DNA of 64,000 nucleotides from Minisyncoccota bacterium (GCA_017992505.1 JAGOON010000001.1:2532-66531); one strand, 5' to 3'. Numbered from the stretch's first letter, positions 2,690 to 25,309 are shown. Program-made: numbers and translations. The notes: generated by a model from the letters alone, not told the origin.

Positions 2690-3929
2690 GGTTTGGGTCG
2701 GCCATTACCTCTTCCACAATTCTTTCCGCACGAATCCCTTGCGATGCTTTTACTAAAACCACATCTCCATACTGCAAAAGTGCCTGGAGTTCTCTCCCTG
2801 CCTGTGCACTGTCGTCATACTGGAGGATATTATCCTCAGGCATACCCATATTGAGCGCGCCTTCGGCTATCTTGCGAGCGCGGACACCAACAGTGAGGAG
2901 CATATCTGCGGAACGTGCTACCAGGGCACCAATTTTCTCATGCTCCTCTGAAGAAAAGCGCCCAAGCTCTAGCATGTCACCCAAGACCGCTATCTTACGC
3001 TTGGCGTGTTTCATTTCAGAAAGCGTTTGCAGTGCAAGCTCGCACGCAGTCGGTGAAGAGTTGTATGTGTCATCAATGATCATAGTGGACTTAATTCCTG
3101 GAATAAGTCGCGCTCGACCGTTTGGTGTTCGTAAATCCTTGAGTGAAGTCACTGCTTCTTCAAGTGAAATACCGAGCACATCAGCAACCGCAACTGCGGC
3201 TGCGCATGCGTATGCATGCTGAGTACCAACCGTTCCAGAAATTTGAAGTGGAATGGACTCTCCTGCGTGTGTAATAGTGCACTGCATTCCGACCGCGACA
3301 TCATCGGAATAAATAACCGCATCATCCGTCGCCATGTAGTCGGTTTCAATGTAGCGACTGAACCCAAGCGAGCGCTGCAAGACGTCTCCCAACTGTTGTT
3401 GTATGAGCATATCATCATGATTGTATACAAGTGTTCCATCAACTTTCAGCGCCGACACCAATTTCATTTTTTCTGTAATGACTGCTTCTGGGGTTTGAAA
3501 GTATTCAACATGTACTGGAACCGACGGAAGACGAGTGAGCACCACCACATCTGGTCTTATCCAACGAGAGAGTCGTTCCATGTCACCTGGTCTATCAATA
3601 CCCATTTCAAGTACGAGCACAGCTGGATACTCTTTGGAAAAGAACGCAATAAAAAAACCATCGAGGATATTCTTAATCCAAAGGAGTGGATTACCCCAGG
3701 CGTTATGGAGTCCGAGTACAGTGATTGGTACACCAATTTCAGAATTGAAACTTTTTTCACTCTTACGTGCTGAAACGGAATTCTTTATCGCAGAGTAAAT
3801 GGCGTCCTTGGTGGTCGTCTTACCGACATTACCAGTCACGCAGACAATGGTCGGTTTGTGGCGATTGAGAAGCACCTTTGCTTCATAGGAAAGAATTTTT
3901 ACAACAACAGACTTACAAAATGCTTTCAT
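2637..3929 (-). CDS. murF: Mur ligase, MurF-like (UDP-MurNAc-tripeptide--D-Ala-D-Ala ligase) lacking the usual N-terminal domain
   Basis: P-loop VTGNVGKTTTKDAI (GKTTTK is MurF-like) at residue ~33, followed by Mur ligase middle and C domains. Last gene of the dcw cluster, directly after ftsI. Confidence 0.55.
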   Translation of the reverse strand: MKAFCKSVVVKILSYEAKVLLNRHKPTIVCVTGNVGKTTTKDAIYSAIKNSVSARKSEKSFNSEIGVPITVLGLHNAWGNPLLWIKNILDGFFIAFFSKEYPAVLVLEMGIDRPGDMERLSRWIRPDVVVLTRLPSVPVHVEYFQTPEAVITEKMKLVSALKVDGTLVYNHDDMLIQQQLGDVLQRSLGFSRYIETDYMATDDAVIYSDDVAVGMQCTITHAGESIPLQISGTVGTQHAYACAAAVAVADVLGISLEEAVTSLKDLRTPNGRARLIPGIKSTMIIDDTYNSSPTACELALQTLSEMKHAKRKIAVLGDMLELGRFSSEEHEKIGALVARSADMLLTVGVRARKIAEGALNMGMPEDNILQYDDSAQAGRELQALLQYGDVVLVKASQGIRAERIVEEVMADPNHASELLVRQDDEWIIRK

Positions 3930-6879: not shown

Positions 6880-7314
6880 TTAGAGGACGCCAATCTCTCC
6901 AAGCTTTTCTGCCAAAGCATCAGCTTGTTCTTCGATTGAGCGCTTGTAAGTCTCCCATCGTTTCTCATCCCAAATCTCGATACGACTATGGATACCAGCC
7001 AAGACTACACTTGACTCAAGTTTTCCAAATTCTTTCAAGAAGTCTGGCACGAGAATACGTCCAACTGAATCCACCTCCACCTCTGTGGCTCCTGACAAGA
7101 AGAATCGATTGAAGCTTCTTGTATCCGCCTGCCCGAGTGGGAGTTCACCGATTTTCGCAGTGATTTTCTCCCACTCCTTGAGCGGATATACGAAGAGACA
7201 GTTATCAAGTCCACGTGTGACGACAAGCCTTTTCCCAAGTTCCTCCCGCCATTTAGACGGTAAGGAGAGCCGTTTCTTAGGATCCAACGTATGCTTGTAT
7301 TCGCCAATTAACAT
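6880..7314 (-). CDS. mraZ: Transcriptional regulator MraZ. The ORF extends to 7350; likely start is MLIGEY at 7314
   Basis: Two MraZ DXXXR repeats (LDPKKRLSLP; VDSVGRILVP). N-terminus MLIGEYKH matches the canonical MraZ start. Confidence 0.85.
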   Translation of the reverse strand: MLIGEYKHTLDPKKRLSLPSKWREELGKRLVVTRGLDNCLFVYPLKEWEKITAKIGELPLGQADTRSFNRFFLSGATEVEVDSVGRILVPDFLKEFGKLESSVVLAGIHSRIEIWDEKRWETYKRSIEEQADALAEKLGEIGVL

Positions 7315-7327
7315 AAACTTGATAGTC

Positions 7328-7393
7328 GAGCTAGTTTGGTGACCAACCACAATCTAATGTGGAGAGGATTGTAGCGGGTCACCAAACTAGCTC
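7328..7393. promoter_or_regulatory. 17-bp perfect inverted repeat bracketing a TACAAT hexamer immediately upstream of mraZ (candidate operator of the dcw promoter)
   Basis: GAGCTAGTTTGGTGACC at 7328-7344 and its exact reverse complement at 7377-7393, with a 32-nt spacer. The spacer contains TACAAT (minus-strand sense, 7368-7373). Confidence 0.5.
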
Positions 7394-8214: not shown

Positions 8215-9798
8215 TTACTCTTCCCCCCTGAGTCGTTTTATCAAGAAATCTTTATCGAGGGTACTTAAAAACCAACCTACTTTTGGACCACTGTCTTTAC
8301 CAAGAAATACTGTGTAGATGGCACCAAAAAATTCTTTTGGTGAAAGCTCCGACTCACTTTTCACTTCGTGAATGAGTTCGTGGAGGATTTGTCCGTCAAT
8401 AGTTTCAAGTAATTCTATTTTGTCTGAAAGGAGTTTAAGCGCTGACTGTTGTACCTCTGTAAGTGACTGAGTTGCCTTGGGAATGTTTTGCTGTAGCGTA
8501 AAGATGAACTTGTCGTCTGCATACTCTTTGAGCCAACGCTTCGCGTACACGACTCGTTCGTCGAGTTCAGCCACATCAATATCAGTGAGTTCAGTCTCTT
8601 TCATTTTTGCTACCTCATCATAGATATCCATATGCGGCATTTGCACCAGAAAAGCTACTTGTGAGAAGCGTGGTAAATATCGTACAGGCAACTCCGCTCG
8701 TTCATCAGGCAAATGGATGAAGTTGAATACTTGTGAATCATCATCACGTACACCGCTCCAATACTTTTCTGCGAGCTTATCGTAGGTATCAAAGAGAACA
8801 GGAATTGCGTCCCCTTCTGGATCAAAATCAAGCTGACGATTGATTGGTGTCTTGAGTAGTAAGAGGCGCAAAATATGTGGTGGCAGAATATCTGTCATTT
8901 CTCGTGCTGAAGCAGCGTTTCCTTTTGAGGAAGACATTTTCTTTCCACCCACCAAGAAGAATTCGTTGAAGACACCGTATGGTGGCTCATGGTCAAAAAT
9001 TTCGCGACAAATCGCTTCAGCTACTTGCCTCGAACCACCCTTGGTGTAGTGGTCTTTTCCGCCCCCTTCGAAGTTCACATTCTGTGCAACAAACTTCGCC
9101 GCCCAATCGAGCTTCCATGGGAACTTGGCATTACCATTGTATGGCGACATGCGACCACTGTGACCACAACCCTTGGCCCACGCGATAGTGTCTGAACTAC
9201 AAGTATAGTCGACAAGCTCTCCATCAAAGCCGGTGATCTTAGTCGCGCTTAGGTTGCCACAATTTTCACAGATAACATTCAATGGATACCAGTCTTCTGG
9301 CTTCTCGCTCTTTGAAATACGAAAATATATATCACGAACAACGGCACGCCGTTCTAATGCCTTTTGAATCATCTCATTCATCGCACCACTGCGATAAAGT
9401 TCGCTCGCTCGATAGACTTCTGCGCCAAAGCCAATTTTCTTGAGCACTGATACATATTCTTGTCCGTAGTATTCAGCAAAATTATCAAATCCTGGTTCTG
9501 GTGACGGAATGTTGCAAAGTGGCACACCCATGTACTGCTCGTACGTCGCGGTATCGAGATAATTTGGAATACCATCCATGGGATCGAAGTCGTTGATCTC
9601 AAACAAAAACTTTACATTGTGACCTCGACTTTTGAGTACATCAGCAACAATGGCGTGCATTGACGCGCTACGCAGTGAACCAACGTGTACTTGTCCTGAA
9701 GCAGTCTTTTCGTCACGAATAACAATTGGTTGTCCAGACGAAATTAGCGACGCGTATCGTCGCTCAACCTCGTCAGCAATAGCATCTGCCCAAAACAT
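8215..9798 (-). CDS. lysK: Lysyl-tRNA synthetase, class I (archaeal type)
   Basis: HIGH-like motif HVGSLRS and KMSSSKGN (class I LysRS-specific KMSKS variant). Zinc knuckle CENCG. Length 527 aa. Confidence 0.75.
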   Translation of the reverse strand: MFWADAIADEVERRYASLISSGQPIVIRDEKTASGQVHVGSLRSASMHAIVADVLKSRGHNVKFLFEINDFDPMDGIPNYLDTATYEQYMGVPLCNIPSPEPGFDNFAEYYGQEYVSVLKKIGFGAEVYRASELYRSGAMNEMIQKALERRAVVRDIYFRISKSEKPEDWYPLNVICENCGNLSATKITGFDGELVDYTCSSDTIAWAKGCGHSGRMSPYNGNAKFPWKLDWAAKFVAQNVNFEGGGKDHYTKGGSRQVAEAICREIFDHEPPYGVFNEFFLVGGKKMSSSKGNAASAREMTDILPPHILRLLLLKTPINRQLDFDPEGDAIPVLFDTYDKLAEKYWSGVRDDDSQVFNFIHLPDERAELPVRYLPRFSQVAFLVQMPHMDIYDEVAKMKETELTDIDVAELDERVVYAKRWLKEYADDKFIFTLQQNIPKATQSLTEVQQSALKLLSDKIELLETIDGQILHELIHEVKSESELSPKEFFGAIYTVFLGKDSGPKVGWFLSTLDKDFLIKRLRGEE

Positions 9799-10020
9799 AC
9801 GTAATGCTTATCCTAGCGTATACATAACAAAAAAGAAAGGTTCCTTCTGCAGCTCGCTGCCGCCAGATTCAGGTCTAGGAATGGACCTGAATCGTGGCGA
9901 AGCGCCTGCATAAATTCGCAATAGTCGGCTACGCCTCGTTTGCTCATTCAAAAGAAAAGGCCAGAGCTAATGCACTAACCTTTTCTTCTTACCCTGATAC
10001 TTAAAATTGAGAAAGATGTT

Positions 10021-10110
10021 CGGATGCGAGGCGCGGGAGGAAAATTGTGTGAGGCGTACTTAATGTACGGTGAACATAATTTTACCGAACTACAACGAAG
10101 CAGACGGGCG
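10021..10110. repeat. Conserved ~80-nt intergenic element, copy A, immediately 3' of greA. Homologous to 18225-18320
   Basis: About 80% identity to copy B over roughly 75 nt. Shared blocks are GGAGGAAAA, CGTAC-N4/5-GTACG hairpin and TTTTACCGAAC-N-GCAAC-AAGC. Confidence 0.6.
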
Positions 10111-10112
10111 TC

Positions 10113-10580
10113 TTACTCAACTTTTAAGACTTTGTACTTTTGCTTTCCGAGTGGCGTTTCAAATTCAAATTCGTCTCCCTTCTTCTTCCCCATCAATGCT
10201 TCACCGAGCGGTGAAAGGTAAGAGAGCTTGTGCTCGTGGATATTTGCTTCGTCTGAGCCAACGATGGTGTACTCTCGCTTTTCTTTATCCTTGTCTTTTT
10301 GGATTGATACAACTGATCCGAGTCCAACGACGTCACCATGCTTTTCATGTGCGACAATCTTTGCTTCCTTGATAGTCTTTTCGAGGTAGCCAATACGTTC
10401 TTCGATTGCTGCCTGCATATCACGAGCTTCTTGGTACTCGGCATTTTCTGAGAGGTCACCGAGACTTCGAGCGTACTCAAGTGACTCTGCAACTTCCTTT
10501 CGACGAACGGTCTTTAGGTGATCGAGCTCTTTTTTTAATTCTTCGAATTTCTCTGGGGTCAGAAACGCTTGTGTATCCAT
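10113..10580 (-). CDS. greA: Transcription elongation factor GreA
   Basis: N-terminal coiled coil plus C-terminal FKBP-like domain (GDLSENAEY; TIVGSDEAN; SPLGEALMGKKKGDE). Confidence 0.9.
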   Translation of the reverse strand: MDTQAFLTPEKFEELKKELDHLKTVRRKEVAESLEYARSLGDLSENAEYQEARDMQAAIEERIGYLEKTIKEAKIVAHEKHGDVVGLGSVVSIQKDKDKEKREYTIVGSDEANIHEHKLSYLSPLGEALMGKKKGDEFEFETPLGKQKYKVLKVE

Positions 10581-15856: not shown

Positions 15857-16954
15857 TTAGAATAAGCGAACAATATCATTAAAAGTAACAGCTGCCATCA
15901 GTACCATAAGAAGCACGAAGCCGAGGAGATTGACCCAGCCCGTGACACGAGCAGGTACACGACGTTTTGTAATGGCCTCTACGACCACAAAGGCGAGTCT
16001 ACCGCCATCAAGCGCTGGAAATGGAAGGAGGTTCACCACAGCGAGATTAAGGGAGATAATAGCGGTAAACATAAGGAGTGGCGTGAGGCCGTATGAGGCT
16101 GCGTCGCCTACCATACCAACAATCCCGACCGGACCGGCAATCGTTGAAAAATCTGCCTCACCAATAAGTGATTCTTTGAGTAATGTACCGAGTCCGACCG
16201 TAATACTGACGAGTCCGTCTACCGTCATCATAAAACCATCGCCGATAGCATTGATGAATGATTCCTTTTTGACTTCAATAAGTGAAAGTGAAGCACCGAC
16301 CACGTACTTTGAAGCGTCTTCAGCAACCAAACCAGTCTTGGGAGTAAGTGAAACACTGACCATTTCATCATCGTGCTCGTATGTTACCGCGATCGCTTCT
16401 GGTGCGTGTTCGGAAACGAAGCTACTGAATGTACTTGGAGTTGGTGTTTTAAGAACATCGTTACCCGATTCTGCCTTTACGATTACCGAACCAACTGGGA
16501 GCACCCCTTCAGCTGGTGCTCCAGGGAGTGTTCCTGCAACAACAAGCTGTGAGTTTGCAGTCGCTTTTGATTCTTCAATAGCAGTTGGCACTCCGATAAT
16601 AAGCACCAGAGTAAAGAGGAGCCAAGCAAAGAGTATATTCATCGTAATACCCGCAACCAACACCACAGCCTGTGCCCACTTTGGGCGCTCATGGAACGCG
16701 CGTCCAACATCTGAAGGATTTCTTTCTTTTCCATCTTCTTCAGCATTCTCTCCGTATATTTTTACATACCCACCGATTGGTAAGAGGTTGAAGTTGTATT
16801 CTGTCTCCCCTCGTTTAATACCAAACATCTTCGGTGGGAACCCAATCGCAAACTCATCAACACGCATACCTGTCTTTTTGGCGGTGATGTAATGTCCCCA
16901 TTCGTGCACCAATACGAGCACGAAGAGAACAAGGAGAAACAAGAAAATGGACAT
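15857..16954 (-). CDS. rseP: RIP zinc metalloprotease RseP (site-2 protease)
   Basis: HEWGHYITAK HExxH motif in the first TM, a PDZ-like middle region and an LDGG motif near the C-terminus. Confidence 0.8.
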   Translation of the reverse strand: MSIFLFLLVLFVLVLVHEWGHYITAKKTGMRVDEFAIGFPPKMFGIKRGETEYNFNLLPIGGYVKIYGENAEEDGKERNPSDVGRAFHERPKWAQAVVLVAGITMNILFAWLLFTLVLIIGVPTAIEESKATANSQLVVAGTLPGAPAEGVLPVGSVIVKAESGNDVLKTPTPSTFSSFVSEHAPEAIAVTYEHDDEMVSVSLTPKTGLVAEDASKYVVGASLSLIEVKKESFINAIGDGFMMTVDGLVSITVGLGTLLKESLIGEADFSTIAGPVGIVGMVGDAASYGLTPLLMFTAIISLNLAVVNLLPFPALDGGRLAFVVVEAITKRRVPARVTGWVNLLGFVLLMVLMAAVTFNDIVRLF

Positions 16955-16957
16955 AGA

Positions 16958-17497
16958 TTATTTTTGTAGTTCGATTTCTTTTTGAGTAAAGAGCGCCTCT
17001 AATGATCGGTTAGCATCATCGACTTGATTTTGTACCTTTTCCTTTTGGGAAAATTTATCGTCTTCACTTATGTCACCGTCCTTTTGTGCCTTATCAATGG
17101 CTTTCATTGATTCGTCACGAACTGCACGAACTGAAATACGAGCGTCTTCAAGTTTTGACTTTGCGAGCTTAAGAAGCTGTACGCGACGCTCCGAGGTAAG
17201 GTCTGGAAAGATTACGCGAACCCCATCTGAATCTGAGGCAGTTGAGATACCGAGATTTGCTTCCTGAATGGCACGCTCAATAGCTGAGACAGCGCCCTTA
17301 TCCCAGACACTAATACGCAGTGTTCGAGCGTCTTCAATATTGACGCTCCCCACTTGGTTGATTGGTAAGTACGAGCCATAACTTTCTACCTTGACCCCAT
17401 CAAGCAACATCGGACTAGCCTGCCCAGTACGAATACCCGCGTACTCTTTTATGAGCCATTCATTAACTTCTTTTAATTTGTCAGAAATATTTTCCAT
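16958..17497 (-). CDS. frr: Ribosome recycling factor
   Basis: 179-aa full-length match to the RRF fold (IRTGQASPMLLDGVKVESYGS...). Confidence 0.9.
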   Translation of the reverse strand: MENISDKLKEVNEWLIKEYAGIRTGQASPMLLDGVKVESYGSYLPINQVGSVNIEDARTLRISVWDKGAVSAIERAIQEANLGISTASDSDGVRVIFPDLTSERRVQLLKLAKSKLEDARISVRAVRDESMKAIDKAQKDGDISEDDKFSQKEKVQNQVDDANRSLEALFTQKEIELQK

Positions 17498-17550
17498 ATC
17501 TATCTAAACGTTTTATGTATGTGCCAGTGTAGCACTTTTTTATGCCTATT

Positions 17551-18168
17551 TTAAGCGGGTAATACCAACGCTAGGTGTTCGAGTAAAAACTTATTTGAAG
17601 CACCACGAGTAAGGAGGAGTCTCGTCACATACTCTAGTTCAGACAGTGTTTCCTTGGGAAGTGTAATGGCGGACTCTTTGAGATACTGTATGAGGCCCTT
17701 TTTGATAGCGTTTTGCCAGATATGATCCTTTTGCTTGGTGGCTTGCTCAATCTGCGCCATGCGCTCACCATAGGAAGCATCTTTAAAAGAAGCAAACGCC
17801 TTGTAGTCAACAATCTCACTAACAGTCCCTACTCGTTCAAAACGAGACTCAAGTGTGGGTAAAAAGCTATATCCTTCTGGGATAATGAATACGAACATTG
17901 TCGAGCGTGGTGGTTCTTCGATAATCTTAAGCAACGCTTGCTGCGCCTCTTCAGTCACAAACTCAGTCGCGACAATAATCGTGCGCGTGTCGGTTTCTCC
18001 ATCTGGCCTGCGGTGGGCGTTTATGATGAGTGTGCGGACATCATCAATACCAAACTGCGCAGTTCGATACTGATCAGTTACGGGCACCGCACTATATGCA
18101 TCAATTGTCGCAATGAGTGGAGCTTCTGAAGAAAACAAAACAGCATGATGGGAATTCATGCCGTTCAT
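17551..18168 (-). CDS. holB: DNA polymerase III delta'-like (HolB-like) short clamp-loader subunit
   Basis: LLKIIEEPP motif (the LLKTLEEPP box of clamp-loader subunits). 205 aa, degenerate P-loop. Confidence 0.55.
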   Translation of the reverse strand: MNGMNSHHAVLFSSEAPLIATIDAYSAVPVTDQYRTAQFGIDDVRTLIINAHRRPDGETDTRTIIVATEFVTEEAQQALLKIIEEPPRSTMFVFIIPEGYSFLPTLESRFERVGTVSEIVDYKAFASFKDASYGERMAQIEQATKQKDHIWQNAIKKGLIQYLKESAITLPKETLSELEYVTRLLLTRGASNKFLLEHLALVLPA

Positions 18169-18173
18169 TATGG

Positions 18174-18179
18174 ATTGTA
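18174..18179 (-). promoter_or_regulatory. -10 hexamer TACAAT 5 nt upstream of the holB-like ATG (leaderless-type promoter). TTGACA lies 11 nt further upstream
   Basis: Minus strand reads TTGACAcatataccagaTACAATccataATG. Confidence 0.45.
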
Positions 18180-18224
18180 TCTGGTATATGTGTCAAAGGG
18201 CTCACAAATTAGAGCGTCACAAAA

Positions 18225-18320
18225 TAATCTGAGGCGAGGCGCTGGAGGAAAACAGATTGAGACGTACCTATGTACGGCGAAATTTTTTTTACCGAACAGC
18301 AACAAAGCTTCAGGTTATTT
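18225..18320. repeat. Conserved ~80-nt intergenic element, copy B, immediately 3' of the Pro-rich gene. Homologous to 10021-10110
   Basis: See copy A. On the minus strand it aligns GCTTTGTTGCTGTTCGGTAAAAAAAATTTCGCCGTACATAGGTACGTCTCAATCTGTTTTCCTCCAGCGCCTCGC with copy A. Confidence 0.6.
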
Positions 18321-18328
18321 TTGGCGTT

Positions 18329-19762
18329 CTAACCTTTTTGCAGATCGAGGATATGGCGTATAACTCGTCGCAGATAGTGTTCGAAGGTTTCGCCCTGTTG
18401 ATAGATTATACCTTGCTCGTAGCGCCATCCGTTCATATAGTCAGTAATACTTTGTTTGATTTCCTGCGTCGCCCCCTCAAAACGCCCAGCAAGTAGGAGT
18501 GGGATATGAAGCGGTGCAATCTTTTTAAAGAGTGGGTGCTCGTGACCTTTAGGACCAGTACCGAAAAGACCGCTCTTTTTAAATATAGACCATTCTGAGA
18601 GTAACTGTTCAAGACCATCATCAACTTCCTTATTAAAAAGTGGATCACCTGACGAAATCGCGGAAGCTTTGAGGGATGCAGTCGCCTGCAAATCTTCGAG
18701 AGTATGTGGCTTCTTTAAATCTGCAAGTGACGCGAAGCCAGCTGGTTGAGCTGGCGCTGGGGCCGGAGCAGCAGACGGAGCTGCTTCTTCATGCGACCAT
18801 GAAGGAGACGCCACTGTTGCAGGTTGTGGGAGAATATCTTTTTCACTTGGTTTATAGGCAGGAACTGGCTGAAACGGCTCACCAGTAGGAACGGCAGCGA
18901 CTCTATGCACTGGTTCGGCTTGAAGAACTGGAGTTTCTTCAACTGATATATTTACTTCCTGTACTGCTGGGGTGGTTTTTGGGCTCACAGCGACTACATT
19001 CACTGTACCGCCACTCGTCTGGTGGGTTTCAAGGGCCTTGAGTACCGATGCGTACGACTCCTCAAGACGCTTCATTGCTGAGGCAGCCGAAGAACCGCTA
19101 TTGAGTTTCTTCATCGCATCGAGGAGTGCTCCCATGTATTCACGCCCAACTTCATTATCAATATCGACAAGATTCACTGGGTTACCGACTTTTTCGTTTA
19201 CAGAGGCTTTAATCTCTCGAATACGAGTAAGGTACTCTCCAACATCAGCTACTGGAGTCACTGGCTCTGGAACAGCCGATACTACAGGAACTGGTTCAGG
19301 CACCTGTTGTGGAATTGGTGCCTCGACCACTGGTGCAGGCTGAACAACGGGCTCTGGGGTGGCTTGGTGTGGTGTCCAAGCTGGCTGTGCACTAAAGACT
19401 GGAATCGAAGAAACGGGCACCTGTTGTGGCGCACTTTGTGCTACGGGTGCAGGCGTGAAAGTCGGAGCAACACGAAACTTTCCGATAGTCGGTTGAGGTG
19501 GAAGTGTTTGGGTTGATTGAGGACTAATTTTTCTTGGTGCTGGGGTTACCCGATATGCGACTATTTTTTGTTCAAGCGCGAGACGAACAGTCTGATCCTT
19601 TCCGCCGTTTGTATACAAAAAAACCAAGTCACGGAGTTCGCTTTTTTGTGGAGCCCCAATTTCACTTGTTCGGATAGACGCAAGTAAATGCATCACTCCT
19701 GCTTGTGACTCAAAATCAAAGACGGCGTTCCCATTTATGGGCAAAGAACCAACACTCACCAT
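18329..19762 (-). CDS. Hypothetical Pro/Ala/Val/Gln-rich protein (third gene of the ATPase module)
   Basis: 477 aa. Three predicted globular segments separated by PxxP/PAPV low-complexity linkers. No signal peptide or TM seen. Confidence 0.5.
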   Translation of the reverse strand: MVSVGSLPINGNAVFDFESQAGVMHLLASIRTSEIGAPQKSELRDLVFLYTNGGKDQTVRLALEQKIVAYRVTPAPRKISPQSTQTLPPQPTIGKFRVAPTFTPAPVAQSAPQQVPVSSIPVFSAQPAWTPHQATPEPVVQPAPVVEAPIPQQVPEPVPVVSAVPEPVTPVADVGEYLTRIREIKASVNEKVGNPVNLVDIDNEVGREYMGALLDAMKKLNSGSSAASAMKRLEESYASVLKALETHQTSGGTVNVVAVSPKTTPAVQEVNISVEETPVLQAEPVHRVAAVPTGEPFQPVPAYKPSEKDILPQPATVASPSWSHEEAAPSAAPAPAPAQPAGFASLADLKKPHTLEDLQATASLKASAISSGDPLFNKEVDDGLEQLLSEWSIFKKSGLFGTGPKGHEHPLFKKIAPLHIPLLLAGRFEGATQEIKQSITDYMNGWRYEQGIIYQQGETFEHYLRRVIRHILDLQKG

Positions 19763-19830
19763 ATAGAGTTCATGATAGCATTTTTTAAAAAATGAAAAAC
19801 AAAAAAGTTATGAACAGGCTGTGTATTACA

Positions 19831-21357
19831 CTACGCAGCCATTGTCTCGTCATGTTGCAATAATGTTTCAAGTTCGGCACGAATGAAGAGCTCACCAAAT
19901 GTTATCGTCGGATGAGCATGGGTGATGTCTATCATTGAATTCAGTGAATCAATCCAATCAAGATAAACTTCATACTTAATATCGCGCTCTTGCAGTTTTG
20001 CTCTAACAACATCACGTGACTGACTATCAAAGTCGACCACTTCTTTTACAGTCATACTTCGGAGAAAATCATAGAAGGCGCTTTTGTATGCAAAACCAAA
20101 GGCAGAGTCAAATTTTGATGGCGCTTCGATTCCCTGAATCTCACGTCGCACCATTGCCTCAAACTGCGCTACCGATGGAAAGTTGTATGCAACGAACTTT
20201 CCATAACGAGGGATTGCCAAGACTTTTTCGATTACCCCACCCCATTCGCCCTTATAAGCTCTTTCAACGCGCTCGATTGAGGGTTTGGTTGGTGAATTAT
20301 GAATTGCCTTCGGTCGAGGCGGGTTGCTTGCTATGAGCTCTGGCTTTTTGACGAGTGTAATTGGAACAATTTTCTCTTCAGTTTCTGCTTCCTTTGCAAC
20401 TTCAATAGCACCAGTTGGTTGTCTTTTTATATCAATGTTAACGAGCGGAATTTCTTCGTCCTTTTCAAAGAAACCCCCAAGACCCTTATCGAGCTGAATG
20501 AGATTATCTGATATTTCATCTACTGCATCTTCAAAATGCTCGGACGTTAGTTCAGTGACTTTATCATCCCTATCGAGATACTCCCTGATACTTTTAAAAG
20601 TCGTTCGCGCACGGTCAGTGGTGATGACGAGTTGTTTGTAGTAGTGTTGCCCTACATTCAAAACAGCATCCGGAGATACTACCTCGTTAATTTCTTGGTA
20701 CTTTGCGAGAAGTGCTTCTGCTTGCTCAATGAGCATTTCAGTTTTTTCCTCAAGTGTATTCAATTTACTTTTCTCAACAGTGGCACTCTCATCAACAACC
20801 AACTCCTTATCAGGCTCAACTTGAGGACCGGCAACTATTTCTTCAATTTCTTTTATAACAATCTCTTCTTCCGCAACCATTACTTGTTCCACTTCTGGTT
20901 TTACAAAGTCTTGGGTCATACTGTCTTCAGGAACCAACTCAACGGGGACTGATTCGGAGACAGTTTTTATCGGTAAGGTGTCGACCACAATCGGTGTGAC
21001 TTCTGGCATTACCACCACCTCATTTTCTACGACCGCCTCAATGGATTCAATACCATCAAGAATATCAATGAGCTCGTTGTAATGGGTTTGAATTTCGTTC
21101 GCAAGCGTTTCATCTACATCACCCCCTTCATCTTTAAGTAAAAAGGCAGTATTGAGTTTTTCTTTCAGCGTCTCGTAGAGATGAGACACATTTTCTAATT
21201 GGTTGTGTGATGACTCACCCGAGTGAGCCTTGATGTACTCTATGAGTTCAGTATACGCATCTTCCGTGTGGCGCGAAAAAGCCTGTAGGCCTTCCCTAGT
21301 ATTGATATCAATATCTTCTTGCACCTCTTCGGCGGTGGTCATTCGTTCCATGCTCAT
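19831..21357 (-). CDS. Hypothetical highly acidic (Glu/Asp/Val-rich) protein, start overlapping the upstream ATPase stop
   Basis: 508 aa. Its ATG overlaps the stop of the upstream ATPase gene (ATGA). The acidic coiled N-terminal two-thirds are followed by a conserved-looking C-terminal domain (EWGGVIEKVLAIPRYGKFVAYNFPS...). Confidence 0.5.
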   Translation of the reverse strand: MSMERMTTAEEVQEDIDINTREGLQAFSRHTEDAYTELIEYIKAHSGESSHNQLENVSHLYETLKEKLNTAFLLKDEGGDVDETLANEIQTHYNELIDILDGIESIEAVVENEVVVMPEVTPIVVDTLPIKTVSESVPVELVPEDSMTQDFVKPEVEQVMVAEEEIVIKEIEEIVAGPQVEPDKELVVDESATVEKSKLNTLEEKTEMLIEQAEALLAKYQEINEVVSPDAVLNVGQHYYKQLVITTDRARTTFKSIREYLDRDDKVTELTSEHFEDAVDEISDNLIQLDKGLGGFFEKDEEIPLVNIDIKRQPTGAIEVAKEAETEEKIVPITLVKKPELIASNPPRPKAIHNSPTKPSIERVERAYKGEWGGVIEKVLAIPRYGKFVAYNFPSVAQFEAMVRREIQGIEAPSKFDSAFGFAYKSAFYDFLRSMTVKEVVDFDSQSRDVVRAKLQERDIKYEVYLDWIDSLNSMIDITHAHPTITFGELFIRAELETLLQHDETMAA

Positions 21358-24188
21358 ATCATATCAGGCATTGCCGAGATTGGTGGCGGTGGCGGTGGAA
21401 CGGGCTTTTGGTACCGTACACGTATTTCCTCTTCGATTTCGGCTCGTGCTCGCCCATAGCGAGCGTAACTTTGTTCAATCAACATTGCTACTCGTTCTGG
21501 ATTTGATGCTTGTGGCGGTAATGTTGAGAGACTAAATGGCGGTGTTGGCGTACCGTTGGCCAAAATGCGCATGTACGCACTGCGATTTGGAACATTCATA
21601 AGATCGCTTGCACTAAAGGTTGGTGCGTATTGTTGCTCCAAGAACTGCGCATCCTCAGGGCCCACCCTGAAAGCTGCAAGTGAGCCGACATTCCCGAAAA
21701 CTGCGTCTTTTATGTCTGGTTGAAGCTGAGCGATAAATTGGTGCGCCATAGTGAGTCCAAGTTTGTATTTACGAGCTTCTGAAAGAATCGCCGAGATAGA
21801 ATCCGTAGAAATATTCTGAAATTCGTCCATATGAAGGTAGAATGGTGGATATTTTTTGAGGGGGTCATCAACGCGCGAAAGCGCAGCCATGAGGAGTTTC
21901 CCTACAAAAATCATACCGATAAGATTGGCATTAATTTCACCAATACGACCTTTGGCAAGATTTACCAGCAAAATCTTTCGCTCATCCATAAGAAGGCGGA
22001 AATTGAAAGCGCTACGCTGCTGTCCGATAATTGGTCGCATATAGTCATTTGCGGTGAAGACGTCAAATTTTGAAACGATGTATGGCACGATGTTTTCGAG
22101 CGCAGCTTCCCCACCTGCCTTTGTTGCAATCTCTCGCCAGAACTGGACGACGACTGGGTTCGTTGCTTTTTCGAGTTTCTGTCGTCGATAGCGAGCATCG
22201 ACCATTACTCTTGAAATATCCATGAGTGTATTCCCACTTTCTGGATCTTCCATTACAAGCATAGTGGCATTGCGGAAATACTGCTCAAACATTGGACCCA
22301 TAGATTCTGGATTGCCACCGTAGAGCTTTTTAAAAATAGAAAAGAGTTCGTTGACCACAAACGTCTTTTGTTCTGGCTTTGAGTAATCAAACTCGAGCAT
22401 ATTGAGGCCAATGACTCGATCAAGACGAGCGGGATCAAAATAGATGACGTCCTGCTCTCGGTGTGGCGGAACGGCAGCGAGGACATCTTCGATGTCTGTG
22501 CCATGCGGATCAATCATACACACACCGTCACCACGCATAATATCTTGAACAATCATGTTCTTCATGAGTGTTGTCTTACCTGTCCCTGTCTGACCAATGA
22601 TATAAAAATGACGCAGACGGTCTTCAGCGGTGATGAAGATTTTTCTTTCCGTACCACGGTGAGCATTAATGCCAAGAACAGTACCTTCGATAGGCATAGT
22701 GGTGGGCGCTGGAGCTGTTTGTGCGTATGACTGCTTAAACTGAGGGGCCGCAGCGCCAGAAGCAGCATTTTGAGGGAAATGCACCAATGTCGCTAACTCT
22801 CGAATTGAGAGTGGCACAATCCCTTTCACAGATAACTCACGAAATGAAAATGCTCGAAGCGCCCGCTTCTGCGCCAGACCAGTGAGACGATTGAACACAA
22901 AGGCATTTCCATCAACTGAATTAAAAGCTAAAAATGTCGATTCTATTTCTGACATTATCTGTTTAGCCCGCACATCTGTCTTTGCCGAGACCACCATACG
23001 GATGTTTGTTTCAACAATATCGGTAGTGATTTTCTTGCGGAAGAGTTCGATGGAACGTGTGTCAATTTCTTTTGGTGGTACCTGCACCTCTTCCTTTTTC
23101 TTATTGGTGAAAAAGAGGTCAGTGACAGTATTTTTAAATTCACCAATCATTGAACTCCGTGCAATTGCGTCCGCTGGTTTCGTGCCTTTTTCAACTTCTT
23201 TAATGATAGATTCGTATGTACTGCGATACTTGTCATGTGGGTACCGCACAATAAACTGAAGCGCCGCTCCTCCACCTTCACGTTCGATTTTTGAGAAGGC
23301 GTTTAAAATAACTGAGAATGGGTCAGCAGTGAATTCATCATGTGGTTTCAAAGGATAGATGGGGTGCTTTCTGAGACTTACTTCAGAAACGAGTGCCACT
23401 CCACCATCGGCAAAAATATTATAATCATGCGGTTGAATTGTCAGTACTGCGTGTGGAAAGAGTGAGAGTGTCTGCTTTTCAAAAAGCGTCGCAAATTCAT
23501 TTGGCACTGCAACGTAGTACACGATATCGTCACTATTATCAGCAACCGCTACCTCGATGACGAAGTGATTCCCCGCTTGAACTGAACCAATCGTTCGAAG
23601 ACCCGCCAACAGTTGCTCCATAACGCCGACCAGTTGCGCAAGTTGTTGTGCATTTCCATCTGGAGTACTTTGTGACGGAAGTATCACTTCAAAGAGCGTC
23701 ATATGAAGGATGTGCCATGGTGGCAAGCCTTCGCGCAAATCCGCTATCTGTGCACCAGAGCGAATTTGTTCAATAAGTTGACGATGTACTTCGTCGACAA
23801 TGTAGGTGTTATTTGTTTGTTCGAGTACAGTGAGAGCATTTTTGATTCCCTTCTCGTATGCCAACTGCATAATATCCTCAACAGGATTATGTGACACTAC
23901 CACCGCTTCAACGGAACGATTGAGTTCGTCACCACTAAGTTCATAGTTTTTATCGAGCACCATTTTGGGGGTAAAGCTCATGTAGTTTTTTATCTCCTGT
24001 TTACCAAGCGTTTCGATGTCGGTGCGGTCAATGGAGGGCGTACGATCCAGCATCTGACGCTCCCGCTGTGCGATACGCGCACGCAAAAACTCAAGCTCTT
24101 CTTGAGGAGAGGAAAACTGCCTTGGCACACCTTCAATCATGCGTTCATTGTACACGCAAAAGGCGCGCCAAAGGCGCGCCTTAACCAC
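21354..24188 (-). CDS. Soluble TraG/TraD/VirD4-family (TraG-D_C-like) P-loop ATPase with a ~480-aa N-terminal domain of unknown function. Alternative start Met17 at 24140
   Basis: Walker A GQTGTGKTT and Walker B LHMDEFQN, then RKYKLGLTMAHQFIAQLQ...GNVGSLAAFRVGPEDAQ matching the VirD4/TraD C-terminal signature. No N-terminal TM helices. Poly-Pro C-terminus. Confidence 0.55.
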   Translation of the reverse strand: MVKARLWRAFCVYNERMIEGVPRQFSSPQEELEFLRARIAQRERQMLDRTPSIDRTDIETLGKQEIKNYMSFTPKMVLDKNYELSGDELNRSVEAVVVSHNPVEDIMQLAYEKGIKNALTVLEQTNNTYIVDEVHRQLIEQIRSGAQIADLREGLPPWHILHMTLFEVILPSQSTPDGNAQQLAQLVGVMEQLLAGLRTIGSVQAGNHFVIEVAVADNSDDIVYYVAVPNEFATLFEKQTLSLFPHAVLTIQPHDYNIFADGGVALVSEVSLRKHPIYPLKPHDEFTADPFSVILNAFSKIEREGGGAALQFIVRYPHDKYRSTYESIIKEVEKGTKPADAIARSSMIGEFKNTVTDLFFTNKKKEEVQVPPKEIDTRSIELFRKKITTDIVETNIRMVVSAKTDVRAKQIMSEIESTFLAFNSVDGNAFVFNRLTGLAQKRALRAFSFRELSVKGIVPLSIRELATLVHFPQNAASGAAAPQFKQSYAQTAPAPTTMPIEGTVLGINAHRGTERKIFITAEDRLRHFYIIGQTGTGKTTLMKNMIVQDIMRGDGVCMIDPHGTDIEDVLAAVPPHREQDVIYFDPARLDRVIGLNMLEFDYSKPEQKTFVVNELFSIFKKLYGGNPESMGPMFEQYFRNATMLVMEDPESGNTLMDISRVMVDARYRRQKLEKATNPVVVQFWREIATKAGGEAALENIVPYIVSKFDVFTANDYMRPIIGQQRSAFNFRLLMDERKILLVNLAKGRIGEINANLIGMIFVGKLLMAALSRVDDPLKKYPPFYLHMDEFQNISTDSISAILSEARKYKLGLTMAHQFIAQLQPDIKDAVFGNVGSLAAFRVGPEDAQFLEQQYAPTFSASDLMNVPNRSAYMRILANGTPTPPFSLSTLPPQASNPERVAMLIEQSYARYGRARAEIEEEIRVRYQKPVPPPPPPISAMPDMI
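24147..24152 (-). promoter_or_regulatory. -10 hexamer TACAAT 6 nt upstream of the Met17 ATG of the ATPase gene
   Basis: Minus strand reads GGCGCGCCttttgcgtgTACAATgaacgcATG. Confidence 0.4.
24160..24182. promoter_or_regulatory. Perfect GC palindrome GGCGCGCC-AAA-GGCGCGCC (candidate operator) abutting the ATPase-module promoter
   Basis: AAGGCGCGCCAAAGGCGCGCCTT. Each half is itself palindromic. It is located in the -35 region of the putative promoter. Confidence 0.45.
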
Positions 24189-24222
24189 ACCTCCAAATTT
24201 AAGAGCGTCCTAAAAAGTACCT

Positions 24223-24262
24223 ATCTACTTTGTATCCTTAAATACAAAGTAGATGAGTGCTC
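24223..24262 (-). terminator. Rho-independent terminator of the mreB-paralogue gene
   Basis: Minus strand ATCTACTTTGTA-tttaagga-TACAAAGTAGAT (12-bp perfect stem) followed by a T-run. Confidence 0.7.
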
Positions 24263-24274
24263 TTTGGGACGCGG

Positions 24275-25309
24275 TTATTTTTTGCTCAAGACTGCTCGTT
24301 TGTATACATCTAGGTGTTCGAGCGCCGTCCCGGTTCCTTTTACTACACAAAAGAGTGCTTGGTCGGCCACAACCGCCTTCACCCCCAAACGTCGGCGAAT
24401 GAGCTCTGGAAAATTACGGAGCTGAGACGTACCACCAGTCATGATAATACCCCCATCGATAATGTCTGCAGCAAGCTCTGGTGGAGTCTCTTGAAAAACA
24501 TCTCGTATTGCCTTTATCATTTCCTTCAATTCTTTTCCAATCGCACGTACAACTTCATTACTCTTGATTTCGGTTGTACGAGGCAAACCAGAAATCATGT
24601 CCCTTCCTTTAATTTCCATCACCAACTCTTCTTCAAGTGGAAGTGCTGAACCAACTTTAATTTTTATATCCTCAGCCGTCTTTTCACCAATCGCGAGATT
24701 TCGAGTCTTCTTCACATAGTCCACAATCGACATATCGATACGGTTGCCCGCGCACTTAACTGAGTTCGAGGCTACGATACCCCCAAGCGAAATTACTGCC
24801 ACATCGATAGTACCGCCACCGATATCAACAATCATATGTCCTTGCGCTTCATATATAGGTACACCTGCACCAATAGCAGCGAGAATTGGTTCTTTCACCA
24901 CAAACGCATTCTTGGCGCCCGCCCGCATGGCAGCTTCTACTACCGCCCGACGCTCAGTTGAAGTCACGCCCGCTGGCACCGACACCATCACATCTGGCCT
25001 AAAGAGGCTGTACTTACTCATGGATTTTTTGAGGAAGTATCGAAGCATCGCTTCAGTAACGCGATAATCAGCAATGACGCCGTCACGCATTGGACGATAG
25101 GCTCGAATACTATCGGGAGTACGTCCAATCATTTGCTTGGCTTCGGTTCCAACAGCAAGCACCTCGTTGTCCTCAGAAATAGCAACAACTGACGGCTCAT
25201 TAAGTACAATTCCTTGTCCTGGAATAAACACCAAAATACTGGTAGTACCAAGGTCGATGCCGATTTTAGGAGTTAAGCTACCAAACATGTTAGGCACATA
25301 TACTACCAC
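24275..25309 (-). CDS. Second MreB-family actin homologue (Mbl/MreBH-like paralogue)
   Basis: IGIDLGTTSILVFIPGQGIVLNEPSVVAI and VDIGGGTIDVAVISLGG. Length 344 aa. A distinct paralogue from the mreB at 13493-14566. Confidence 0.8.
   Translation of the reverse strand: MVVYVPNMFGSLTPKIGIDLGTTSILVFIPGQGIVLNEPSVVAISEDNEVLAVGTEAKQMIGRTPDSIRAYRPMRDGVIADYRVTEAMLRYFLKKSMSKYSLFRPDVMVSVPAGVTSTERRAVVEAAMRAGAKNAFVVKEPILAAIGAGVPIYEAQGHMIVDIGGGTIDVAVISLGGIVASNSVKCAGNRIDMSIVDYVKKTRNLAIGEKTAEDIKIKVGSALPLEEELVMEIKGRDMISGLPRTTEIKSNEVVRAIGKELKEMIKAIRDVFQETPPELAADIIDGGIIMTGGTSQLRNFPELIRRRLGVKAVVADQALFCVVKGTGTALEHLDVYKRAVLSKK

Follow-up and report, generated by a model that had tools for sequence, protein, structure and literature searches.

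Analysis of a 64,000 nt stretch of DNA from a Minisyncoccota bacterium (hereafter the window) firmly established that the interval at 18225–18320, referred to as copy B, belongs to a typical antisense member of an undescribed, ancient and strand-specific Paceibacteria family of approximately 125 nt hairpins. The family is new but of a known general kind, the bacterial structured non-coding RNA, and the rule by which its members are placed next to genes is matched to no described system. The first-pass annotation had presented the interval as the second of two copies of a conserved intergenic element, and the element was present at that place, with a likeness to the other copy (copy A) far above chance. 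The 22-mer TTTTACCGAACAGCAACAAAGC had two matches in the window at up to three mismatches (18287–18308 and 10080–10101) and none in 100 shuffles, and the block GGAGGAAAA, reported as shared, was exact in both copies. A third such block, GACGTACCTATGTACGG, was not shared as written; copy A has GGCGTACTTAATGTACGG in its place, and a search allowing up to three mismatches gave no other match. The position was also borne out, 57 nt from the annotated ATG (18168) of a holB-like gene and directly 3′ of the last gene of a module, 9 nt from the stop codon of the gene at 18329–19762. The interval sits in a 160 nt spacer with a minus-strand gene on either side. It lies inside the element, but the true unit is larger, a 124 nt hairpin (Table 1). 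The element is repeated, conserved, intergenic and directly 3′ of a gene; the full hairpin overlaps the stop codon of the upstream gene, which falls in its outer stem. The flanking genes are all on the minus strand, whereas the fold is on the plus strand, copy B being antisense to both its neighbours.

Folding of the copy B plus strand gave a minimum free energy (MFE) of −53.9 kcal/mol (z −6.2), compared to −33.3 kcal/mol (z −1.9) for the minus strand, and covariance model R1 scored copy B at 107.8 bits (E 1e-27). The 5′ strand of the junction between helices P3 and P4 lies inside the Shine–Dalgarno (SD)-like GGAGGAAAA, and the GG of P4 pairs with CC at 18292–18293. Directly after the hairpin, the plus strand reads CCUUUUUG, i.e. 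UUUUU; a promoter and terminator scan did not call copy B as a terminator. The protein encoded upstream belongs to a cluster of only two members. For the holB-like gene, a TTGACA/TACAAT promoter had been suggested, but its spacer is merely 11 nt and the scan preferred TTGACA-18-CATAAT. As a separate observation, this promoter-like site (18159–18196, minus strand) overlaps the annotated ATG, and a second in-frame ATG at 18159 would then lie at or near the transcript start, giving a leaderless mRNA.

Table 1. Coordinates of copy B, copy A, neighbouring features and forward-facing relatives (positions without a locus prefix refer to the window)
Feature	Position	Strand	Description
Copy B, full hairpin	18209–18332	+	124 nt, approximately 44 base pairs; encloses 18225–18320
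Copy B, conserved core	18231–18310	+	P2 to P5 with purine-rich internal loops; alignments A2 and A3, RNAalifold structure
Copy B, P3/P4 junction, 5′ strand	18241–18248	+	P3 (GCUG), loop GA, first GG of P4
Copy B, apical hairpin P5	18263–18276	+	CGUAC-CUAU-GUACG; flanks GAG and GCGA (tandem G·A)
Copy B, P3/P4 junction, 3′ strand	18291–18300	+	A-CC-GAA-CAGC
Gene upstream of copy B	18329–19762	−	477 aa, no Pfam family (ORF list, Pfam scan)
holB-like gene downstream of copy B	17551–18168	−	DNA_pol3_delta2, Pfam E 1e-11, 205 aa
Promoter-like TTGACA-18-CATAAT of holB-like gene	18196–18167	−	Promoter scan
Copy A, paralogous hairpin	10000–10128	+	Core approximately 10025–10101
Ordinary terminator-type hairpin	9948–9986	−	Follows copy A as read from greA; seen in the sequence and in an Rfam terminator-like alignment
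rpmI-leader copy	L022:5487–5607	−	
rpmI-leader copy	L059:9646–9767	+	L059/L060
rpmI-leader copy	L065:9517–9638	+	
rpmI-leader copy	L067:9625–9745	+	
tmRNA gene	L067:1156–1752	+	Approximately 600 nt; family copy inside, forward, 1245–1368

Copy A displayed the same asymmetry between strands, with an MFE of −52.3 kcal/mol (z −6.9) on the plus strand and −28.5 kcal/mol (z approximately −2) on the minus strand, and scored 113 bits with model R1. It lies between greA (10113–10580, minus strand) and a class-I lysS (8215–9798, minus strand) and its 3′ arm overlaps the greA stop codon (10113–10115); in each of copies A and B, the 3′ arm enters the stop codon of the upstream minus-strand gene. The cores of the two copies share 79 % identity across approximately 140 columns, including a 5 bp stem (CGTAC/GTACG) with differing loops, and their outer stem sequences differ yet pair in each. 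A filter-free covariance-model scan of the 64 kb window recovered copies A and B only, with no third copy. An interpretation of the pair as template and variable repeats of a diversity-generating retroelement was rejected, as the differences between them are not adenine-specific.

Pattern scans and covariance models identified approximately 60 distinct relatives in Paceibacteria/Parcubacteria metagenome-assembled genomes (MAGs) and metagenomes. An exact-pattern scan of one genome per species yielded 11 true matches, all in Paceibacteria, Parcubacteria, Kaiserbacteria or Minisyncoccia MAGs except one labelled Saccharibacteria, whilst a metagenome scan with a two-sided pattern added 30 further loci. 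The loci found by pattern yielded 47 distinct copies with covariance models R1 and R2, and 13 further copies came from loci fetched via L20 homologues, which were thus chosen independently of the element. One genome match (L017, Bacteroidales) and three metagenome matches (L025, L039 and L045) were attributed to chance, as were viral-contig matches to the looser pattern GGAGGAAAA-N-TTTTACCGAAC, which reflected only an SD followed by an ORF. At gathering thresholds, Rfam 15 reported only tRNA-Asn in the window; at E values up to 10, copies A and B returned noise only, and the relatives in L022 and L018 gave terminator-like noise with no match to L20_leader. Literature searches on structured RNAs of CPR/Patescibacteria turned up nothing relevant. 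Readings as SRP RNA, 6S RNA, Y RNA, T-box or K-turn were ruled out by sequence and by the lack of an Rfam match. A small plus-strand protein gene following the SD-like GGAGG was also rejected, as the frame is not kept between copies A and B and several relatives reach a stop codon early on, after a few codons; GGAGG itself is partly base-paired and missing from many family members.

The secondary structure was supported by extensive covariation. RNAalifold predicted 31 pairs from 13 sequences, 17 of them with compensatory changes, and among 47 distinct sequences 27 of the 31 pairs had changed on both sides. In the alignment of these 47 sequences, which was fitted to the model and therefore favours pairing, standard pairs occupied 93.5 % of cells, compared to 71 % for column shuffles and 29–47 % for slid partners, and the observed pairing values were reached in none of 500 shuffles. 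An independent MAFFT alignment gave the same helices. Whole hairpins are usually 120–130 nt long with 41–46 pairs. The outer stem (approximately 20 bp) is free and variable in sequence, often with tandem G·A pairs next to it, and is followed by P2 (UGC/GCA), a loop of GA-G-GC opposite AA-C-AAA (also given as GAGGC/AACAAAG), and P3, a freely covarying helix of 4 bp (GCAG/CUGC, GUGG/CCAC, GCCG/CGGC and others). A GA/GAA loop then leads to P4, in which GGAAAAU and five variable pairs face a 3′ strand ending in AUUUU-A-CC. Beyond a GAG/GYGA tandem G·A element, the apical hairpin P5 comprises 5 bp, which covary (CGUAC, GGGAC and GCGAC types), and a variable loop. Conservation peaks in the middle of the hairpin rather than at its ends. 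An A-rich tract at alignment columns 4–7 and a U-rich tract at columns 106–109, within the 3′ arm, flank the stem, and no consistent U-tract follows the outermost base pair across copies.

The strand that folds could be determined from the paired columns, in which G·U pairs outnumbered A·C combinations by 101 to 24 (P=2e-12), and by 53 to 23 when the two pairs richest in G·U were left out. The element strand was the more stable in 60 of 61 copies, by a mean of 13 kcal/mol. On the sense strand a long hairpin still forms (mean −34 kcal/mol), but the conserved loops turn into U/C mismatches. Mutational bias was rejected as the origin of the surplus of G·U pairs. The window has a negative GC skew throughout, and cytosine deamination linked to replication (C-to-T) is expected more often on the sense strand, here the leading strand, such that the expected bias would enrich G·U on the other strand. 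As the expected bias runs opposite to what was observed, this reasoning, together with the GC skew, argues that the asymmetry reflects selection.

Members of the family follow a consistent placement rule, whereby the 3′ arm abuts the stop codon of a gene on the opposite strand or, more rarely, the start codon of a gene on the same strand. An opposite-strand stop codon was found within the last 0–18 nt of the model in approximately 38 of 48 copies, the exceptions being mostly at contig ends, and the rule was kept in nine of the 13 copies from independently chosen loci. The most frequent host genes were khpA (approximately ten loci), ssb (seven), rpsR and secY (four each), lepA (three to five) and gyrB (two), with single or occasional copies at efp, ndk, greA, rseP, rplT, rpmI, rplF and infC. 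The first-pass annotation had also suggested testing whether the element marks operon boundaries; as such this did not hold, as relatives also occur in 5′ leaders, in a tmRNA gene and within operons (ssb|rpsR, khpA|trmD, rpmI|rplT and rplF|rplR). Approximately half of the loci have an ordinary terminator, complete with A- and U-tracts, just past the element in the sense direction of the gene. Such terminators and the copies inside operons indicate that sense transcripts appear to read through the element. Copies in both orientations occur within 0.3–3 kb of each other in L057, L065 and L067, so that orientation tracks the gene and not replication. Readings linked to single-stranded DNA or replication (IS200/IS605-like or attC-like) were rejected because orientation depends on the gene and the strand that folds would be the leading-strand template. 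In L057, all that separates two copies is a 55 nt terminator hairpin, so that promoters could hardly fit between them. Antisense copies had no conserved promoter upstream, where a −10-like hexamer was present on the element strand in 22 of 46 cases and on the other strand in 15 of 46. One further member (L035:14292–14409, plus strand) lies approximately 150 nt past the 3′ end of a 16S rRNA gene (approximately 14560 onward, minus strand) and is antisense to it.

Forward-facing members were seen in three settings. Four genomes carry a sense-oriented copy between infC and rpmI with its 3′ arm ending at the rpmI AUG, and the leaders in L022 and L059 have in common an upstream promoter-like TAGACT-17-TATATT. 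These copies had no Rfam match and probably serve as the operator of the L20/L35 operon in these bacteria. Directly upstream of rpoB in L018 (3609–3960, plus strand), a TTGACG-17-TATCAT promoter is followed by a divergent member (3731–3850) and an intrinsic terminator (approximately 3884–3920), an arrangement that would be either an attenuator-type leader or a separate small RNA (sRNA). In L067, a forward copy lies inside a tmRNA gene, within approximately 235 nt inserted after pseudoknot 1 and before the resume codon, as judged against the tmRNAs at L059:6164–6558 and L065:898–1310; the gene was missed by ARAGORN, and Rfam matched its 3′ end only. The forward copies at rpmI, rpoB and tmRNA indicate that the element strand is transcribed in at least some contexts.

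The copies are old. Paralogues within a genome share 35–66 % identity with no near-identical set, which shows that the family is not a recently active repeat, and orthologues at the same site in different genomes share 42–69 %. At khpA, ssb, secY and rpmI, different genomes retain orthologous copies with pairing kept, and because prolyl-tRNA synthetase of the window organism is 66 % identical to that in L024, the family spans at least family- or order-level divergence. The greA site offered a closer view of turnover. Relatives L007, L010 and L003, which share approximately 79–87 % DNA identity with the window and encode identical GreA proteins, lack the copy downstream of greA (L007 and L010) or carry a divergent variant of it (L003). 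In the window, the greA–lysS spacer is 315 nt and holds the element, the terminator and two more small hairpins (9800–9947); in L007 it is 65 nt (L007:1592–1657) with a plain terminator only, and homology between the two ends exactly at the greA stop codon and restarts 22 nt before the lysS start. These differences indicate that gain and loss occur, albeit slowly. Copy number is likewise uneven, some genomes having several copies per 20 kb and others none. Conserved termini and target duplications were absent among the copies. The outer stem differs at each locus. Its pairing partner is coding sequence that was already in place, such as the final codons of greA and khpA, so that the stem must have been adjusted after arrival of the element. 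A Y1 (HUH, PF01797) transposase gene was observed adjoining rplT on a 1.08 Mb Paceibacteria contig (L062:10622–11281, minus strand), with no hairpin copies in the surrounding 20 kb.

One lead to a binding partner came from the P3/P4 junction, [GCAG]-GA-[GG…]/[…A-CC]-GAA-[CUGC] in the family and [GCUG]-GA-[GG..]/[..A-CC]-GAA-[CAGC] in copy B. At the level of sequence this resembles the H40/H41 junction of Escherichia coli 23S rRNA (rrlH), [AGCU]-AA-[GGU]/[ACC]-GA-[AGCU] at positions 996–1004 and 1151–1159. The H40/H41 junction is bound by the C-terminal domain of L20 and is mimicked by the L20 operators before rpmI in E. coli and infC in Bacillus, two adenines being the only conserved loop bases of L20 sites (PMC1865079, PMC1888825). 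The 5′ side of the junction is GA in the subfamily of copy B, as opposed to AA in rRNA, and the rpmI-leader copies have AA. The family model did not match the E. coli rrn operon, and a second likeness, to 23S positions 1510–1560, was judged generic. As with known L20 operators, four relatives lie directly upstream of rpmI-rplT, the hairpin closing over the start region; in contrast, copy B and most other members are far from rplT and antisense to their neighbours, copy B lying between an orphan gene and the holB-like gene and not in a sense leader of infC or rpmI-rplT. The junction likeness and the four forward copies at the classical operator position before rpmI-rplT make L20 the only concrete candidate partner.

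We tentatively favour, as one possibility among several, that the family constitutes an RNA module, active on one strand, by which transcripts entering genes in the antisense direction are stopped or marked, with a bound protein probable. G·U and sheared G·A pairs would stabilize the element strand, with A·C and U·C mismatches on the opposite one. With these pairs lost on the sense strand, the sense mRNA would carry only a weakened hairpin and the antisense transcript would form the full structure. At gene 3′ ends, antisense transcripts may thereby be stopped or marked for processing before they enter the gene; forward-facing copies, in tmRNA and the leaders of rpmI and rpoB, may attenuate the RNA that contains them or direct its processing, and the conserved purine-rich loops are a putative protein-binding platform. 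Plus-strand transcription at copy B is inferred, as are the function as a barrier or processing mark and any partner protein. Several points weigh against this reading. They include the absence of a conserved promoter upstream of antisense copies, the lack of space for promoters between the two copies in L057 and the absence of a consistent U-tract after the outermost pair. Where an ordinary upstream terminator in the element direction already stops antisense transcripts, a second barrier looks redundant, and the need for strand asymmetry alone does not explain the conserved loop sequences. Against a role specific to L20, several copies per 20 kb in some genomes would be many, and the GA on the 5′ side of the junction and the absence of a model match in E. 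coli rRNA also count. A broader version, which we regard as quite unlikely, is that a single module mimicking the L20 site, set backwards at many gene ends and forwards at a few starts and in tmRNA, forms a genome-wide protein-responsive system gating antisense transcription and the expression of ribosome-related genes. We know of no described system of that kind.

Among the alternatives, it is possible, though doubtful, that each copy is a dedicated cis-antisense sRNA gene with its own promoter in the spacer, the RNA either controlling the adjoining gene, through base pairing at the 3′ end or 3′ UTR of that gene or through convergent interference, or titrating a protein such as L20 in trans. 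The folded strand and covariation, the constant hairpin size (approximately 124–130 nt) at any locus and the junction likeness to the L20 site are consistent with this, as are the ordinary terminator often found just 5′ of the element, as for an insulated unit, the TATANT-like hexamer that frequently follows it, and the strong promoter and terminator of the L018 relative. Yet −10-like hexamers are not enriched relative to the opposite strand, the 3′ arm antisense to the gene is locked in its own stem and poorly free for pairing, and a free-standing gene need not abut a stop codon nearly every time. Known cis-antisense 3′-end RNAs (the type I antitoxins RatA and SR4, and riboswitch-controlled antisense RNAs) are similarly convergent and overlap the last codons of their targets, but the family abuts housekeeping genes instead of small toxins and reuses one structured core at many loci. 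A type I toxin–antitoxin system was rejected on the same grounds, the abutting genes being greA, khpA, ssb, rpsR, secY, gyrB, lepA and others, with no small hydrophobic toxin ORF. An origin as an old selfish or neutral insertion hairpin, in the manner of rRNA intervening sequences, REPINs or MITEs, appears unlikely. Under such a scenario copies would survive only where, and in the orientation in which, they are harmless; forward copies in a 3′ UTR would undergo cleavage or block expression, so that only antisense ones remain there, whilst forward copies would be tolerated in leaders and tmRNA. The presence/absence pattern at greA, the insertion in tmRNA relative to two other genomes, the uneven copy number and the Y1 transposase gene in one related genome all fit insertion. 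The divergence of copies within genomes, the absence of conserved terminal inverted repeats or target duplications, the pairing of the outer stem with existing coding sequence and the persistence of orthologues with compensatory changes across genomes at approximately 66 % protein identity argue against it; furthermore, the enrichment in G·U pairs falls on a strand left untranscribed under such a model, and the genome with the Y1 transposase had no copies in the 20 kb examined. Comparison with REP/BIME, ERIC and REPIN elements was similarly mixed. These are also multi-copy imperfect hairpins of approximately 100 nt in gene 3′ regions and within operons, and some REPs lie within approximately 15 nt of stop codons; unlike REP, REPIN and MITE elements, the family has no near-identical set, its orientation to the gene is strict and the non-coding strand folds. 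No RAYT was found at copy-bearing loci. Intervening sequences and expansion hairpins resemble the relative inserted in the tmRNA gene in that RNA's own orientation, a long closed hairpin that RNase III could putatively remove, but most family copies are antisense in spacers of protein-coding genes and their internal loops are conserved. Integron attC sites were rejected, as there is no GTTRRRY/RYYYAAC pair, conservation is central and not basal, and the hosts are housekeeping operons.

That the sense mRNA carries the function, with the reverse complement forming a 3′ UTR hairpin from the stop codon that serves as a terminator, attenuator, RNase III site or stabilizer, as in REP/ERIC, is very unlikely in our assessment. 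Sense transcripts must contain the element, since it always lies between the stop codon and the ordinary terminator where one is present, and the long sense-strand hairpin and the A/U tracts flanking the stem in both directions would suit such a role. Set against this are the excess of G·U over A·C, the lower stability of the sense strand in all but one copy, the conversion of conserved loops into pyrimidine-rich mismatches, the use of the element strand by the forward copies at rpmI, rpoB and tmRNA, and the copies within operons, where a sense terminator would be harmful. Bidirectional intrinsic terminators share with the family a hairpin between A-rich and U-rich tracts at gene ends; in contrast, the family hairpin is four to five times longer, with conserved loops and strong strand asymmetry, and is often beside an ordinary terminator and sometimes within an operon. 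Were the element a self-cleaving ribozyme of a new kind or a site for a dedicated nuclease, both its tolerance in leaders and tmRNA and its antisense-only placement in 3′ UTRs would be explained. The dispersed copies and the logic of their orientation fit this, and a long hairpin with two to three conserved internal loops and covarying stems presumably recalls the architectures of the hairpin and twister-sister ribozymes. We nonetheless consider it highly improbable: no Rfam ribozyme model matched copies A and B at E values up to 10, and the alignment holds no equivalent of the N-GUC/AGAA loop A. Least credible of all is the original interpretation of a double-stranded DNA signal at operon borders, whether operator, promoter-associated site or boundary mark, which had been drawn from an intergenic, repeated element adjoining the holB-like promoter region. 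Covariation largely refuted it, since the helices covary as base pairs on the strand opposite the genes and such pairwise change at 27 helix positions is unexpected for a duplex site bound by protein. The strand asymmetry and the copies within operons and the tmRNA gene also speak against a DNA signal.

To our knowledge, very few regulators can be recognized in CPR bacteria, and descriptions of non-coding RNAs from them are almost lacking. A strongly covarying RNA family that is outside Rfam and reaches several copies per 20 kb in some genomes provides a concrete RNA for testing and a covariance model usable for annotating these genomes. If the family suppresses or processes antisense transcripts, it would represent a genome-wide means of orderly expression in minimal cells, and if it binds L20, ribosomal-protein feedback would extend from one operon to many genes.

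Several features of the surrounding window were observed in passing. GC skew is approximately 0 at 16000–24000, compared to approximately −0.08 over the remaining window. This low-skew region includes a three-gene module (18329–24188) that encodes a 944 aa HerA/DUF87- and ResIII-like ATPase and two orphan proteins belonging to clusters of two to three members, and copy B lies at its 3′ edge. The region looks like acquired DNA and the module is possibly a defence module. An 88 nt near-perfect hairpin (24195–24282) abuts the stop codon of the gene at 24275–25309 (minus strand) and the start of the 944 aa ATPase gene; it had no match to the family model, and a U6 tract follows it on the plus (antisense) strand only. 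Elsewhere, an almost perfect 66 nt hairpin at 7328–7393, with z of approximately −9 to −10 on both strands, covers the start of an mraZ-like gene (6880–7350, minus strand).
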